Assembly (NCBI GenBank): GCA_036565925.1
Contig: DATCXH010001115.1
Location: 1-35,968, forward strand
From: Vicinamibacterales bacterium
Lineage (GTDB): Bacteria; Acidobacteriota; Vicinamibacteria; Vicinamibacterales; UBA2999
Length of the DNA: 35,968 nt
Direction of reading: 5' to 3'
Part shown: in pieces, positions 2,943 through 24,073 of the stretch
Layout: the number at the start of each line of letters is the position of its first letter
Position numbering within the stretch: position 1 is the first letter of the stretch
Notes under the pieces: model-generated
Told to the model about the DNA's origin: nothing
What the model saw: the letters and a program-made list of their open reading frames with translations, nothing else
Database searches by the model: none
Made by a program: the position numbers and the translations under genes

Positions 2943-4526
2943 ATGCGGGTGCCGCCGGCGGTGGTCGGCGCGGCGGTGATCGCCGGAGTGGCAACCGCCC
3001 TCGTCCGCTTTCTCGGGCTGGAAGGCTTCTCGAACGATCACTTTCAGTACCTCGCCGCTGCGCAGCAGATGCGGCTCGGTGAGTGGCCCACACGCGATTT
3101 CGCCGATCCCGGGATGCCGCTGATGTATGCGGCCTCGGCGGCTGCGCAAATCGTCTTCGGCCATTCGCTCTTTGCCGAAGCGATGCTGATGGCCATCGTC
3201 TACGGAGTGACGTCGACGCTGGTCGTGATCGCGGCGTGGCGGGCATCGCGATCGTGGGTTGTTGCCGTGCTGGCGTGTGTGCTGTGCGTCATGGCGTTTC
3301 CGCTGCCGGCCAGTTATCCGCGCGCGTTGTTGTACGCCCTTGGTCCGCTGGCGATCTGGGCGTGGGTTCGTCAGCCAACCGGCCCTCGTCTCTTTCTCAT
3401 TTCCCTTGTTGTCTGCGTCGCGTATCTGTTTCGGCAGGAGCATGGTCTCAATCTTGGGCTGGCCGCGATCGTCACCGTGGCTCTTGCACCTGGCGACGCA
3501 CGGGTCATGAAGACGCGTCTGATGACGCTCGGTGTGCTCATCCTGCTGGTGAGCCTGCCGTACGCCGTGTATATCCAGCGCAGCCAGGGAATCTTGAGCG
3601 CTTCAGTGAGCTCATGGGAGTTCAGCCGGCGTGAGGCCGACCGCACGGCGCTCCACCTCGCCGCGTATGGCTCGGGCGATGCCGTACGGCTCTACTACTT
3701 GTTTCATGCGCTGCCACTGATTGCCGCCGCCGTCGTTGCGTTGAATGTCCGACGCGGACGGACCGAGGACGCGTTGATGGGCGCGCCACTCGTGGTGTTA
3801 GCGTTTCTCGCCAACATGAACTTCCTTCGCGATCCGCTGCCGGTGCGTCTGCCGGACGCGATCGTGCCGGCGGTGCTCGTCGCAGCGTGGCTGGCGGGAC
3901 GCGCATTGCGCGTGCCCTCGTTGCCGCTGCGATCGGTCGCGCTCACTGGGGCCGCGGTGCTCATGTTCATCGGGGCCTCGTCAGTCGCGGTGGTCGGCCG
4001 CACGCAGGAGAATCTTGCCCGCACGAATCTGAGTGTCGGACTGTCATCGCTCCCGCAGCTCGTACGCGATCGGACCGCCCAGCTGAAATCCCGGTACGAT
4101 CGGCAGCAGCTACCCGACGGTCGGATCCTGTCCCTCGTCGGCCTGTTCGACTACCTCGATCGCTGTACAACCCCGAGTCACCGATTGCTGGTTGCCGGCA
4201 ACGCGCCGGAAATCTACGTGTACGCACAGCGTCCGTTCGCGGCAGGCCATAGCACTTTTCTCGAGGGCTACTACCAATCCGAATCGGAACAGCAGCAGAT
4301 GCTCGATCGCGTGCGACAGCAGGTGGTCGCCTTCGCACTGATGCTGAGCGATCAGGAGTCGTCGTTCCGTTCAACGGCGCCGGGCGTGAGTGCGTTTGTC
4401 GCTGCCAACTTCCAGCCGCTGACCGAGATACCCACGAGCAGCGATCGAACGGTTCGCGTCCTGGTCCGCAGTGGATTGCCTCCGCTTCACGCGGATACGA
4501 CGACAGGGTGGCCATGCTATCGGTAA
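2943..4526 (+). CDS. Polytopic membrane protein, GT-C-like architecture (paralog 1 of 4)
   Basis: I take the ATG at 2943 (MRVPPAVVGAAVIAG...), just after the upstream stop, as the start rather than the track start at 2847. It has TM1, then NDHF (3033..3044) and GEWPTRDF, then about 10 more hydrophobic segments. The soluble C-terminal domain carries RLLVAGNAPEIYVYAQRPFAAGH..F..GYY. These motifs are shared with 7640..9544, 13544..15214 and 15216..16847. Confidence 0.8.
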   Translation: MRVPPAVVGAAVIAGVATALVRFLGLEGFSNDHFQYLAAAQQMRLGEWPTRDFADPGMPLMYAASAAAQIVFGHSLFAEAMLMAIVYGVTSTLVVIAAWRASRSWVVAVLACVLCVMAFPLPASYPRALLYALGPLAIWAWVRQPTGPRLFLISLVVCVAYLFRQEHGLNLGLAAIVTVALAPGDARVMKTRLMTLGVLILLVSLPYAVYIQRSQGILSASVSSWEFSRREADRTALHLAAYGSGDAVRLYYLFHALPLIAAAVVALNVRRGRTEDALMGAPLVVLAFLANMNFLRDPLPVRLPDAIVPAVLVAAWLAGRALRVPSLPLRSVALTGAAVLMFIGASSVAVVGRTQENLARTNLSVGLSSLPQLVRDRTAQLKSRYDRQQLPDGRILSLVGLFDYLDRCTTPSHRLLVAGNAPEIYVYAQRPFAAGHSTFLEGYYQSESEQQQMLDRVRQQVVAFALMLSDQESSFRSTAPGVSAFVAANFQPLTEIPTSSDRTVRVLVRSGLPPLHADTTTGWPCYR

Positions 4527-20277: not shown

Positions 20278-21474
20278 GTGGTGAAGCACCTGACCGTGGC
20301 GCTCGCGGCCATGGTCATCTTCGGTGCTCTTCACATTACGCTCGGGCGCATCCCCGTTGCCAACGGCGCGGGCTGGGACGGCATCGATTACGTCGCGATG
20401 CTGGAGAAGGGCTGGAAGGCCGGCGGACCAAATACGCAGTTGCGGCCGTTGGTGGTCTGGCTCACGCAACCTGCGTACGTCATGACCGGCTCTGCCGCCC
20501 AGGCGTTCGACATCACCAACTACGCCTTTACCGGTCTGCTGGCGTTTCTGTTTTCGCAGCTGATGGAGTGGTACGGCGCGTCCTCGGTGGCGCGATGGAT
20601 CGCGATCCTCTGCATCAGCGTGTCGAATGCCTATCAACTGCCCGCGTACTACCCAGTGCTGATCGATCTTGGCGGGCACGCGATGATGGCACTGGCGATG
20701 TGGCACATCATCGCCGGACCACGATGGGCAGCAGGCGGCGCTTCTATCGCTGCGGTCCTGTCACGCGAGTATGCGCCGGTCGTCCTGATCTTCGGTGCGT
20801 GGCGCGATCGTCATCTTCGCGTTCCCTTGACGACAACGCTGGCCACGTATGGTCCTGCGGCGCTGGTTTACGTGGCCGTGCGAGTGATTGTGGTTGCGCG
20901 AGCGACGGCGGAAGGAAACACGCTGCAGACATTCATCCGCAATACCGGTTTGTGGAGCGGGCCGTTGTTCCCGGCGTTCTATTTCTATTTCTTGCTGACC
21001 ATCGCCGGCGGCGTGTCGCTGGTGCTCGCCGCGCAGCCGCAGCGCTGCTGGCGCGTCATTCGGGAAGAGCCCGAGTGGCTCGGGTTTGCGGTGCCCATTA
21101 TTCTCGTCACTGCGCTGGTGGGGATCGATATCTGGCGGTATCTCACCGCGTTGACGCCGCTGATCGTCGTGCTGTTCGCGCGATGTTCGCAGGAGTGGCG
21201 GCCACGTCAGGCAATGGTGCTGATGTCGGCCGTCGTGGTGTTGACGCTCGTGACGCAAATGCCATTTCAGGGAATGGACCTGACGCGATACTTTACGGAG
21301 TGGTTTCCGTACTACGCCTGGACCAACGCAGTGCCTGCGGACGTGTCTGTCACGCGCGACATGCTCTGGCCAGGGTGGACGTGGAGGTTCGCGGCCGTGG
21401 CGCTGGCGCTTGGTGCGCTGATCGCGTATGCCAACGGTCGTGGACGCAGTGCACTGGTGACCCAGCGTGCATGA
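20278..21474 (+). CDS. Polytopic integral membrane protein of unknown function
   Basis: GTG at 20278 with GGAGG 9 nt upstream; the track start at 20230 overlaps the SDR gene. About 10 hydrophobic segments. The first loop carries GWDGIDYVAM. No soluble domain. Confidence 0.7.
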   Translation: MVKHLTVALAAMVIFGALHITLGRIPVANGAGWDGIDYVAMLEKGWKAGGPNTQLRPLVVWLTQPAYVMTGSAAQAFDITNYAFTGLLAFLFSQLMEWYGASSVARWIAILCISVSNAYQLPAYYPVLIDLGGHAMMALAMWHIIAGPRWAAGGASIAAVLSREYAPVVLIFGAWRDRHLRVPLTTTLATYGPAALVYVAVRVIVVARATAEGNTLQTFIRNTGLWSGPLFPAFYFYFLLTIAGGVSLVLAAQPQRCWRVIREEPEWLGFAVPIILVTALVGIDIWRYLTALTPLIVVLFARCSQEWRPRQAMVLMSAVVVLTLVTQMPFQGMDLTRYFTEWFPYYAWTNAVPADVSVTRDMLWPGWTWRFAAVALALGALIAYANGRGRSALVTQRA

Positions 21475-22967
21475 CACGAAGAAGAGAATCTGTGAGCATT
21501 GATCTCTCGATCCCGTCGATTGTTCCGAACCAGATGGGCGGCCACGACCGTGGCGCCGCCGACAACCGCACGTTTGCCAAGATGGATCCGGCGACCGGCC
21601 GCGAGTGCTGCCGCGTGGCGCGCTCGAGCGCGGCTGACGTGAACTCCGCCGTCGAGTGTGCGAGGAAGGCGCAGCCGGCGTGGGCGGCGACGACCGTCGT
21701 CAAGCGCGGCGAGATACTTCGGCGGATCGCCATCCTGATGCAGGAGCATCGCAACGCGATCGCCGATCTCGTGGCGCGCGAGACCGGCAAGTCCCGCAAG
21801 GACGCACTCGGCGAGACGGATGCGGCGATCGAGATGGGATTCTTCGTCGCTGGCGAGGGCCGTCGTTTCTACGGTCAGACGACAACGAGCGCCGTGCCGA
21901 ACAAGAGCGCGATGATCGTCCGGCAGCCGCTCGGCGTCGCCGGTCTCATCATCGCCGCGAACACGCCGATTGCCAACGTGGCGTGGAAAGCATTTCCGGC
22001 GCTGCTCTGTGGCAACTCCGCGATCCTGAAAGCTGCTGAAGACACTCCGCTCTCTGCCTGGGCGTTCGGCGTGCTCGCGCGCGAAGCCGGCATTCCTGAA
22101 GGTGTGTACACGACGCTGCACGGCTTCGGCGAAGAAGCTGGTGCGCCGCTCGTCGATCATCCCGACGTCGCGATCGTCAGCTTCACGGGATCGTGCGAGG
22201 TCGGCCGCTGGATCGCCGAAACCGCCGGCCGGCGCCTTGCGAAGACGTGCCTCGAGCTTGGCGGCAAGAACCCCTTGATCGTCTGCGATGATGCGGATTT
22301 GCAGAATGCGGTGACCTGGACACTCGGCTCGGCGTTCAGTAACGCGGGCCAGCGTTGCGCGGCCGGCAGCCGCATCATCGTTTTCGAGCAGGTGTACGAT
22401 CGTTTCAAGGCGATGCTCGTCGATGCGACTCGCAAGCTGAAAGTGGGAACCTCCGACAGTGACGACTACGGCCCGGTTATCAACGAAGACCAGATGAAGA
22501 ACATGCTCGCCGCAGTCACGCGCGCGAAGGCGGCGGGTGCGACTGTGATCACCGGCGGCGAGCGCTTGACCGGACCCTCATACGGCGACGGTTATTTCGT
22601 TGCGCCGACGTTGATCGAGAACGTGGGCCTCAACGACGAGATCACCCGCAGCGAGCTGTTCGGCCCGATCACGTGTCTCTATCGCGTGTCGAATTTCGAC
22701 GAGGCGATTGCGCTGGCGAACGATTCACCTTTCGGACTCACCGCATCGATTCATACGCAGAACATCAATCGCGCGATGACGTTCCTGAACCGGATTCAAT
22801 CCGGCGTAGCCGTCGTGAACGGTGGCACCTACGGCAGCGAGCCGCACCTGCCATTCGGCGGACTGCGTCAGTCGGGCAATGGCTGGCGTGAAGCCGGCAC
22901 GCAGGCAATCGACGTCTACTCAGATCTGAAGACGATCTACATCAATCACAACCCGAGTGCGGTGTGA
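21471..22967 (+). CDS. NAD(P)-dependent aldehyde dehydrogenase
   Basis: The ATG at 21471 overlaps the upstream TGA (ATGA). FTGSCEVGRWI, ELGGKNP (catalytic Glu), GQRCAAGSR (catalytic Cys) and ELFGPI. The track ORF start at 20568 is an upstream same-frame extension across the membrane gene. Confidence 0.92.
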   Translation: MTRRRESVSIDLSIPSIVPNQMGGHDRGAADNRTFAKMDPATGRECCRVARSSAADVNSAVECARKAQPAWAATTVVKRGEILRRIAILMQEHRNAIADLVARETGKSRKDALGETDAAIEMGFFVAGEGRRFYGQTTTSAVPNKSAMIVRQPLGVAGLIIAANTPIANVAWKAFPALLCGNSAILKAAEDTPLSAWAFGVLAREAGIPEGVYTTLHGFGEEAGAPLVDHPDVAIVSFTGSCEVGRWIAETAGRRLAKTCLELGGKNPLIVCDDADLQNAVTWTLGSAFSNAGQRCAAGSRIIVFEQVYDRFKAMLVDATRKLKVGTSDSDDYGPVINEDQMKNMLAAVTRAKAAGATVITGGERLTGPSYGDGYFVAPTLIENVGLNDEITRSELFGPITCLYRVSNFDEAIALANDSPFGLTASIHTQNINRAMTFLNRIQSGVAVVNGGTYGSEPHLPFGGLRQSGNGWREAGTQAIDVYSDLKTIYINHNPSAV

Positions 22968-22982
22968 ACATGGCAGTCCCAG

Positions 22983-23209
22983 GTTCCATGTTCCAAGTTC
23001 CCGGTTCGTGTTCGAGGTTCCCCGGTTCGTGTTCGAGGTTCCGGTGTTCCAGCTTCGGCGTTCGCTGTTCGAAGAGGACATGGCTGGCTCGAGGGCGAAA
23101 TCTGACCCGGAACCCTGAACGGCGCACCCGAACCCGGAACCCTGAACCGCGAACCCTGAACTCCGAACTTCGAACGCGAACCCGGAACCTGGAACATGGA
23201 ACGCGGAAC
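22983..23209. repeat. Inverted array of ~7-nt-period GTTC (left arm) and GAAC (right arm) repeats forming a long imperfect palindrome
   Basis: By my count there are 12 GTTC units at 22983..23070 and 14 GAAC units at 23110..23209. A perfect 21-bp tandem duplication (CCGGTTCGTGTTCGAGGTTCC) occupies 23001..23021 and 23022..23042. The outer arms (22982..23001 vs 23185..23203) are complementary with about one mismatch. The array fills the whole ALDH-to-cytidylyltransferase spacer and overlaps the ATG at 23196. Confidence 0.85.
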
Positions 23210-23966
23210 TAGTCCATCCGCAGTCGCCTTTATCCCCGCTCGCGTGGGATCGAAGCGGGTCCCCGGGAAGAACATCCGGCTGCTCGGCGGTCATCCGATG
23301 ATTGCCTACACGATCGGTCCGGCACTCGAGAGCAAGGTCTTCGACGCCGTCATCGTCTCGACTGATTCAGAAGAGATTGCCGCGATTGCGCGCCACTACG
23401 GCGCCGAAGTGCCATTCCTTCGTCCACCTGCGCTCGCCAGCGACACCTCGCCCGACATCGAGTGGCTCGAGTACACCATTGGTGAGCTGAGCGCACACGG
23501 ACGCAACTGGGACTGCTTCAGTTTGCTGCGTCCGACCAGTCCGTTTCGCACCGCGGATACCATTCGACGCGCGTGGGCGACGTTCGCGGCTCAGGAAGGC
23601 GTCGATTCGTTGCGAGCGGTCGAGTTGTGTACGCAGCATCCGGGAAAGATGTGGGTGGTGCGCGGGCAGCGGATGTCTCCGTTGTTGCCATTCGGTAACG
23701 GGGATCAACCGTGGCACAGCACGCCGTACCAAGCGCTGCCTCGAGTATTTGTGCAAAACGCGTCCCTCGAGATCGCGTGGACGCGTGTCGTGCGCGAGCG
23801 GAGGACGATTGCCGGTGATGTCCTCGTGCCGTTTCTCACCGAAGGCTACGAAGGTTTTGATATCAATGACGCCTTTGACTGGATGGTGGCCGAGCGGCTC
23901 CTCGTCGAAGGGAAAGTAACCTTGCCAACCGTGAACACCGAGCCTTATGGGACTATGAAGGTTTAG
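23196..23966 (+). CDS. Acylneuraminate cytidylyltransferase family protein (CMP-nonulosonic/ulosonic acid synthetase, NeuA/KdsB-like)
   Basis: The N-terminal AFIPARVGSKRVPGKN matches the 'IPARxGSKxxxxKN' signature. Also LRPTSPFR. Length is 256 aa. Confidence 0.88.
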   Translation: MERGTSPSAVAFIPARVGSKRVPGKNIRLLGGHPMIAYTIGPALESKVFDAVIVSTDSEEIAAIARHYGAEVPFLRPPALASDTSPDIEWLEYTIGELSAHGRNWDCFSLLRPTSPFRTADTIRRAWATFAAQEGVDSLRAVELCTQHPGKMWVVRGQRMSPLLPFGNGDQPWHSTPYQALPRVFVQNASLEIAWTRVVRERRTIAGDVLVPFLTEGYEGFDINDAFDWMVAERLLVEGKVTLPTVNTEPYGTMKV

Positions 23967-24073
23967 TGGTAAGTCTTTCATAGTTCGCTGTGGCCGCTCC
24001 GTTGTCGCGGCCAGGTAATCGCGGTCGAAGGCTGGTTGTGACTCGTATGGTTTCGGTATATACGGACCACTAG

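Follow-up and report, generated by a model that had tools for sequence, protein, structure and literature searches.

A heptamer-array hairpin between an aldehyde dehydrogenase gene and a cytidylyltransferase gene in Vicinamibacterales: a probable miniature relative of PF05635 intervening-sequence cassettes

The spacer between an aldehyde dehydrogenase (ALDH) gene and a cytidylyltransferase gene of a Vicinamibacterales bacterium (Acidobacteriota) consists of approximately 230 bases which, read directly, resolve into two arms of heptamer arrays and a centre. We analyzed this element within a 35,968-nt stretch of DNA from a metagenome-assembled genome (MAG), hereafter the window, whose positions serve as coordinates. 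The element is probably a cargo-less (miniature) heptamer-array hairpin resembling an intervening sequence (IVS), and one copy of a dispersed GGTTCCN family. This reading is favored because its arms are built like the arms that enclose PF05635 genes in this genome and genus, one of them with the same GTTCCGG unit. The element settled long ago in the ALDH-cytidylyltransferase junction, where empty alleles have a TGATG overlap. Slippage of units has altered it since then, as have deletions, partial or complete, in different species. In the window, the downstream gene now takes its start codon and first codons from the array.

The array begins 8 nt beyond the ALDH stop codon (TGA, 22965-22967), at about 22975. 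An earlier note on this DNA, made from the sequence alone, had rightly described the spacer as filled by repeats but had placed their beginning at 22983; its count of 12 GTTC units on the left (22983-23070) and 14 GAAC units on the right (23110-23209) agrees with the sequence, as does its description of the centre as non-repetitive. The period of about 7 nt that it gave applies to most units, several others being 6, 8 or 9 nt long. Outer units of the left arm read GTTCCAT, GTTCCAA or GTTCCCG and inner units are of GTTCGNG type. The perfect 21-bp tandem duplication reported in the left arm is real, since 23001-23021 and 23022-23042 are identical, each reading ccggttcgtgttcgaggttcc, and it is a sign of recent slippage. 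Tandem Repeats Finder (TRF) detected period 7 over 22979-23056 and 23105-23209, and the arrays of period 7 and 21 together span 22975-23209. The pattern (GTTCNNN)x2GTTC has 10 matches in the window, all within the element, where 0.00 are expected from 100 shuffles, and the heptamer hairpin is the sole large inverted repeat in these 36 kb. The 34-nt loop holds no open reading frame (ORF), and the downstream gene has its start codon and codons 2-5 in the last three units of the right arm.

The arms, compared as 22975-23044 against 23141-23210, are 77% complementary over 70 nt, and the plus-strand RNA of 22960-23230 has a predicted folding energy of -138.5 kcal/mol (z = -8.3; 0 of 200 shuffles as good). 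This confirms the very long imperfect hairpin between reverse-complementary arms described in the earlier note, which had named comparison with shuffled sequence as a test. The minus strand folds at -142.3 kcal/mol (z = -6.9). In the predicted ensemble the stem comprises 91 pairs with longest uninterrupted helices of 18 and 13 bp, and the AUG at 23196-23198 pairs with CAU at 22987-22989 with a probability of being unpaired of ~0, in keeping with the proposal that outer pairing sequesters this codon. Upstream of the conserved VAFIPAR motif there is no in-frame start other than ATG 23196. The N-terminus of the window protein reads MERGT-S-PSAVAFIPAR, compared with MPS(A/T)VAFIPAR in the ancestral type; the ancestral-type ATGCCATCC reads AGTCCATCC in the window, with the start supplied by the ATGGAAC unit of the array.

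Within the host genome the unit is widely dispersed. The MAG comprises 6.65 Mb in 1271 contigs, is 84.5% complete and fragmented, and was annotated with our own gene calls from a codon-usage model trained on its long ORFs, which are crude and give approximate start sites. The pattern (GTTCNNN)x3GTTC has 200+204 matches, compared with 7+3 for the reversed control. GGTTCCN matches group into 57-58 loci, a minimum because many lie at contig ends: 15-19 are GTTC-then-GAAC pairs, 1 has the opposite order and the rest are single arrays. The comparison of dispersed with locus-specific occurrence that the earlier note had suggested thus comes out in favor of dispersal, and the occurrence of the unit at ~57 loci speaks against a dedicated regulatory element. 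Seven is the commonest tandem period in the genome (323 TRF rows covering 273 loci and 16.8 kb), with units of no fewer than ten families, including GGTCCTT, GGTGGTT, GGTTCCN, CAATGCY, CAACTCC and GGAATCA, mostly as inverted pairs of one unit. Two GTTC/GAAC hairpins that lie 2.7 kb apart (C165:729-920 and 3605-3823) have like loops and flanks (GAACGCTTCAT... and ...TACTCATTCC), so a hairpin-containing segment was duplicated there. In the CAATGCY family (~9 loci, e.g. C1010:2423-2522, C1263:6087-6230 and C343:4142-4258) AATGCCC predominates in the left arm and AATGCTC, read on the opposite strand, in the right arm. One strand thus has C·A mismatches where the other has G·U pairs, which may point to strand-specific (RNA-level) pairing.

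Arrays occupy a characteristic position relative to genes. Among 152 array sides facing the 3' end of a gene, 94 have a stop codon between -3 and +10 nt from the array edge, compared with 6.7% for a random intergenic position. The polarity after the stop differs by family (GUUCCNG 12:2, GUCCUUG 21:5, GGUGGUU 11:2). Stops within this range are TAG in 41%, TAA in 31% and TGA in 28% of cases, against 32%, 20% and 48% genome-wide, an enrichment of TAG/TAA to 72% vs 52%. Often the array begins with the G of TAG (TA|GTTCC, TA|GTCCTTG). On sides facing a 5' end, the nearest start outside the array is ~2-38 nt away, and in approximately one third of them the nearest start lies at or just inside the array edge. 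The window copy follows this rule of position, beginning 8 nt past the ALDH stop and running into the start of the next gene. A general role of outward ATGGAAC units as start codons was considered and rejected: it holds at the ALDH junction in all filled orthologs, and the C165 case is the 3' end of a gene.

The evidence connecting the element with IVS-like cassettes comes from genes found between matching arms. A search for GTTC/GAAC arrays spaced beyond the loop uncovered, on C794, (GTTCCGG)22 followed by a 153-aa ORF and then (CGGAACC)10; the ORF belongs to PF05635, the ‘23S rRNA-intervening sequence protein’ family (E = 9e-17). Inverted 7-8-nt arrays enclose four of the six PF05635 matches in the host genome (C794, C855, C954 and C1169), with a different unit around each (GTTCCGG, CAACTCC, AAAGTGGA and TTGTCGA); the other two border contig ends or 24-nt repeats. 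The units of the four armed genes recur as arrays at 38, 10, 4 and 4 loci, with each gene's own arms counted. Among shuffled heptamers used as a control, 28 of 40 occur at 0 loci, and those with the highest counts are rotations of real families. As for the 24-nt repeats, C787:3891-4194 holds ~12 tandem copies of GTCGGTGCAAGGCCACTGACGCTT, and kindred 24-nt repeats adjoin a PF05635 gene on C15 (C15:1837-2114).

PF05635 genes are present in all 36 genus genomes examined, with 1-15 in each. At genus loci with full flanks, 23 of 25 have at least five inverted 9-mers across the gene, where ~0.6 are expected; 9-mers in the 300 nt upstream were compared with those in the 500 nt downstream, and these counts replaced RNA duplex z-scores, which are uninformative on flanks of 300-500 nt. 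TRF at these loci detected matching units of 7-9 nt in opposite orientation. The repeat scan also found a PF05635 gene between arrays at one Peptococcaceae and one Bacteroidales locus. All seven other genomes with GGTTCCN arrays that were probed have PF05635 genes, and GGTTCCN-armed PF05635 genes occur in a Phycisphaerae MAG, a Thermomicrobiales MAG and one genus-mate. The placement of a gene within a heptamer-bearing stem has been described only within 23S rRNA (PMC4990558), and our literature search found no paper tying PF05635 genes to tandem-repeat arms outside rRNA.

Another junction of the genus, between convergent rhomboid and TPR genes (C794:4535-5317 in the host genome; L244-L273), has both gene-bearing and gene-less inserts. 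The clade G000/G022/G048 alone has a GTTCC-armed PF05635 cassette there; the site is empty in eight species (-4 to 24 nt), and others hold gene-less hairpins with at least four other units, or in one case a gene-less GTTCNNN hairpin. L263 and L264 have an insert of ~600 nt at this junction with GGTCCTT-type arms and no PF05635 match.

The history of the window copy was examined in 30 genus genomes in which the ALDH-cytidylyltransferase gene pair is conserved, with 1.5 kb of flank taken for each relative. Empty spacers of 11-57 nt are found in 14 of the 30, of which L150 has an overlapping TGATG stop/start and the N-terminus MPSTVAFIPAR. Homologous inverted GTTC/GAAC arrays of 150-255 nt with recognizable common blocks such as GGTTCGTGTTCAGGTTCG occupy 12 junctions; two others are partly deleted (L166 with a left arm only, L162 with a truncated left arm), and two contain another, near-perfect palindrome (L173 in G010, L177 in G043). 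This palindrome, GGGGTCGGGAGTCATTAC(A/G)AGAATCGAAAT...ATTTCGATTCTCGTAATGACTCCCGACCCC, folds with z = -9 to -11 and is followed by a retained ancestral-type ATGCCATCC start. Each full ortholog array folds with z between -3.5 and -7.9, and in all filled alleles the only in-frame start lies within the right arm. A tree built from the two flanking proteins requires, at its well-supported branches, no fewer than eight state changes, and the junction states are no more clustered than shuffled labels. The empty L169 still has GAACGGCCGC, complementary to the GCGGCCGTTC end of L166, its sister, as well as the CTCCTTC block found behind the right arm of filled alleles; from this footprint, at least some empty alleles are deletions of a once-filled site. 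In the sister species G022 the flanking proteins are 96-98% identical to those of the window while the array is clearly different and 78 nt shorter, so arrays change much faster than genes.

Several results weigh against the reading of the element as a miniature IVS-like cassette. No PF05635 gene occurs at the ALDH junction in any of the 30 species. Among the seven other GGTTCCN-array genomes, four have no GGTTCCN-armed gene among the loci fetched, and no cross-phylum co-inheritance of protein and unit was found, the GGTTCCN-armed proteins not being mutual closest relatives. Across 35 inverted loci there is no sign of target-site duplication (longest shared flank word 3.60 on average, vs 3.46 in mismatched controls), and family copies have no loop or core sequence in common, duplicated loci excepted. 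No transposase was found between the arms; the only genes between matching arms are PF05635 genes, which are not transposases. A link to repetitive extragenic palindromic (REP) sequences and their REP-associated tyrosine transposases (RAYTs) was rejected, since the six PF01797 (Y1-transposase) matches in the host are flanked by other repeats and none by heptamer arrays. In an RNAalifold analysis of seven orthologous spacers, compensatory change is limited to 2 of 31 pairs and the covariation term is +1.53; the other six spacers were left out, as their repeat structure makes alignment unreliable. Of 12 orthologs, only 4 have a sense strand that folds more stably than the antisense strand. Finally, the folding of the transcript, its cutting by RNase III and an effect on translation are all steps that we infer.

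A rival reading is locus-specific control, in which the hairpin would be selected as a translational or processing element that sets the ALDH:cytidylyltransferase ratio by hiding the AUG. The full pairing of the AUG in the predicted ensemble, the presence of a stable array in 12 of 30 genus-mates and the near-invariance of the outer ~31 bp of the stem in seven species all speak for such a role. We nevertheless regard it as improbable, given that part of the conserved outer right arm is coding (N-terminal codons), which accounts for its conservation, that the unit stands at ~57 unrelated loci, that 14 orthologous operons are array-free and have a TGATG-type junction, that the tree requires at least eight gains or losses, and that the stem has neither compensatory change nor a preferred sense strand. 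The dedicated control suggested in the earlier note is not upheld on these grounds, and the covariation analysis that it proposed likewise gave no support. With no sense-strand preference, the palindrome may instead be maintained at the DNA level.

A miniature IVS-like hairpin could still affect the operon. In the transcript the arms are predicted to form an imperfect duplex of ~91 bp burying the AUG. By analogy with rRNA IVS stems, this duplex is probably a substrate of RNase III, whose gene is present in the host genome; a cut would part the two cistrons and free the start region. For the host the outcome is probably between neutral and mildly modulatory, with no dedicated control. Because neither covariation nor strand preference gives evidence of RNA-level selection, any regulatory effect is treated here as a side effect of a selfish or neutral element.

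How copies arise was approached through the structure of the arms. The ‘group 2’ alleles of the ALDH junction typically have a structured arm of ~48 nt, GAACacGAACcgaGAAGagaGAACctgGAAGcgtGAAC, which nhmmer located at eight or more other loci in the host genome and at another junction in one genus-mate. Since a fixed order of unit variants is hard to obtain by independent slippage, this favors copying. Homogenized GTTCCAG/GTTCCGG runs and the 21-bp duplication of the window are, on the other side, signals of growth in place. No enzyme or insertion footprint that would explain the origin of copies was found, and AGTCC on both sides of the window copy, considered as a target duplication, is within chance.

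Growth in place is the basis of a further explanation, that the element is a plain slippage-born heptanucleotide simple sequence repeat in the sense of Mrazek 2007, with the inversion and the PF05635 neighborhood as by-products. Besides the perfect duplication and the homogenized (GTTCCAG)n runs, the existence of solo arrays, the missing common loops and target duplications, and the occurrence of GGTTCCN beside unrelated PF05635 proteins in different phyla are consistent with it; passages of PMC4679880 and PMC4692102, both citing Mrazek, also present heptamer excess as general in bacteria. Simple slippage is unlikely, though, to place a GTTCC-type unit at dozens of loci when 28 of 40 shuffled units are at none, to yield a ~15-19:1 ratio of GTTC-then-GAAC over the reverse order, to repeat the fixed ~48-nt variant series at no fewer than eight loci, to set arrays 0-10 nt from stop codons ~9x over expectation, or to bracket 23 of 25 PF05635 genes with arrays.

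The structured ~48-nt arm consensus would equally suit a classical non-autonomous transposon, either a miniature inverted-repeat transposable element (MITE) or an element of the type of REP and bacterial interspersed mosaic elements (BIMEs), mobilized in trans by a transposase or RAYT. The copies are dispersed and palindromic, relatives have filled and empty sites, and the six PF01797 matches could be candidates for the enzyme. There is only a slight chance that this is correct, as target-site duplications, a common core and a transposase gene between the arms are all missing, and beside the PF01797 genes are repeats of 12 nt and 38 nt, with no heptamer arrays. Of the options offered in the earlier note, a MITE-like insertion is still the closest, in that the family is dispersed; against it, there is no target-site duplication, and copies have no loop in common even though the ~48-nt arm recurs at eight or more loci. 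The PF01797 genes with their repeats are a separate REP-like system in the host genome: inverted GTCAGACCCCGG and CGGGGTCAGACC surround the gene at C655:2712-3550, the gene at C509:2636-3745 is accompanied by arrays of the 12-nt GGCGCAGGGCTC, and C368:566-698 has 38-nt repeats.

The regular 7-nt spacing raises another explanation, offered in the earlier note in the form of half-sites, namely an array of protein-binding sites acting as a sponge or nucleoid site for a pentameric four-helix-bundle protein, an extracytoplasmic function (ECF) sigma factor or CsrA. GGAAC reads outward from both ends of GTTC-then-GAAC elements and resembles the -35 box of ECF sigma factors, as well as containing the GGA motif of CsrA, and PF05635 proteins are toroidal pentamers according to the statement in PMC4990558 that cites Lin 2006. 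Judged from sequence, such a role is highly doubtful, since there are many families with unrelated units and PF05635 proteins do not co-cluster with units. A different relationship between protein and repeat can be put forward tentatively: heptamer hairpins might be non-autonomous partners of PF05635 cassettes, similar to REP/RAYT pairs but without a known nuclease, in which the pentameric, Avd-like C794 protein would serve to maintain, copy or protect other arrays in the genome that are built from its unit. The sharing of units within genomes favors this idea, and it is weakened, at least as a strict protein-unit partnership, because the GGTTCCN-armed proteins of different phyla are not close relatives.

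Scans of the window region for known signals and structures gave negative results. Rfam covariance models matched the region only with a chance hit to mir-995 (17 bits against a gathering score of 72). No terminator-like site was found by an intrinsic terminator scan of 22700-23500, where the arm is followed by TAGTCCATCC and no hairpin with a U-tract is present, and a sigma-70 promoter scan of the region found no consensus. A coding role for the array in its entirety was rejected: an array of pure units is, from the way it is built, free of stops in every one of the six frames, and the differences in length between ortholog spacers are not multiples of 3. Further downstream, the 107-nt spacer after the cytidylyltransferase gene (23967-24073) is comparatively A+T-rich with complementary ends (TAGTGGT/ACCACTA), and could hold an internal promoter or another small structure. 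Coordinates of the element and its flanking genes are collected in Table 1.

Table 1. The heptamer-array hairpin and its flanking genes, in positions of the window
Feature	Coordinates	Strand	Evidence
Upstream gene, NAD(P) aldehyde dehydrogenase (Aldedh)	21471..22967	+	Translation; Pfam PF00171, E = 1.7e-152
Left arm, 12 GTTC-containing units, mostly 7 nt	22975..23072		Sequence, TRF, pattern counts, arm alignment
Perfect 21-bp (three-unit) tandem duplication in left arm	23001..23042		Sequence; TRF period 21
Non-repetitive centre, hairpin loop region, 34 nt	23073..23106		Sequence; loop comparison
Right arm, 14 GAAC-containing units, reverse complement of left arm	23107..23210		Sequence, TRF, fold
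Downstream gene, CMP-sugar-type cytidylyltransferase	23196..23966	+	Pfam CTP_transf_3, PF02348

Arrays of other heptamers are known from several bacteria. In Xanthomonas (GGGAATC) and Nostoc (GGGGAYT), heptamer arrays are present in many copies per genome and ~90% are intergenic (Rehm et al. 2015, PMC4692102); those of Xanthomonas are often convergent inverted pairs capable of forming stem-loops, lie far nearer the end of the upstream ORF than the following gene and vary in length between close relatives (PMC4692102). The arrays described here are similar to these, and to the short tandemly repeated repetitive (STRR) sequences of cyanobacteria, in their 7-nt units, many intergenic copies, inverted pairing and position near the end of the upstream ORF. 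They differ in the GGTTCCN unit, which is not G-rich and thus has no G-quadruplex potential, in abutting stop codons within 0-10 nt and, for the window array, in supplying a start codon. The publication on Xanthomonas and Nostoc names no associated gene family, whereas here PF05635 is associated. Direct repeats of the heptamer TAACTGA occupy >100 intergenic sites in Beggiatoaceae, cyanobacteria and Bacteroidetes (MacGregor 2015, PMC4679880). Like the arrays here, they have a patchy cross-phylum distribution with no known spreading mechanism, and they end a few nt from start codons (PMC4679880). Unlike the long, inverted arrays that follow stops here, these sets are short and direct, with 2-6 units and one inverted case, and lie upstream of starts.

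The 23S rRNA IVS of Coxiella burnetii, Leptospira and Brucella contain ORFs (Warrier et al. 2016, PMC4990558). In Coxiella, the 5' part of this IVS holds a variable number of tandem GACAGAT heptamers, and RNase III cuts at the start of the first repeat (PMC4990558). The element and the Coxiella IVS both have long complementary terminal arms and a stable stem (-143 kcal/mol in Coxiella vs -138 here), and the ORF in the IVS loop, S23p/PF05635, is of the same family as the gene between GTTCCGG arms on C794. Unlike an rRNA IVS, the window copy lies in the mRNA spacer between two protein-coding genes rather than in a 23S rRNA helix, has no ORF and has arms that are far longer arrays (12 and 14 units), and its cutting by RNase III is proposed by analogy only.

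Inverted heptamer arrays between genes are thus already in print, and this element adds a member with a different unit, abutment to a stop codon and donation of a start codon. An exact-string literature search for the repeat itself found no relevant paper, but the statement in the earlier note that the element is not a described one is only partly right in view of the arrays published from Xanthomonas and cyanobacteria and the stem heptamers of the Coxiella IVS. There is also a likeness to the REP/BIME sequences of enterobacteria, which are dispersed extragenic palindromes in spacers near stop codons; Liang, Rudd and Deutscher in 2015 are said to have placed such palindromes in operon spacers and between convergent genes, often within ~15 nt of stops. 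Unlike the arms here, which are tandem arrays, a REP is a lone palindrome of 20-40 nt with ties to RAYT transposases, and the RAYT-like genes of this host are found with other repeats.

Among long simple repeats, heptanucleotides show the greatest over-representation in many bacterial genomes, for which we know of no explanation, and to our knowledge no role has been established for the four-helix-bundle proteins named after 23S rRNA intervening sequences. If true, the proposed partnership of hairpins and PF05635 cassettes would tie the bacterial heptanucleotide excess and rRNA intervening sequences to one protein family. For annotation, the finding is a warning that start codons beside such arrays may lie inside the repeat, and the arrays explain breaks in short-read assemblies at these sites in these organisms. 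The element is of moderate interest in itself and of greater interest as a test bed. The ALDH junction provides a natural series of empty, filled and half-deleted alleles and alleles with another palindrome across 30 related species, and in the filled alleles a repeat has replaced an overlapping stop/start and now begins a sugar-activating enzyme. A second junction in the genus alternates between gene-bearing and gene-less forms. Together, this pair of junctions makes testable the processing of such hairpins by RNase III, their cost or benefit to the flanking genes and their dependence on a four-helix-bundle protein.

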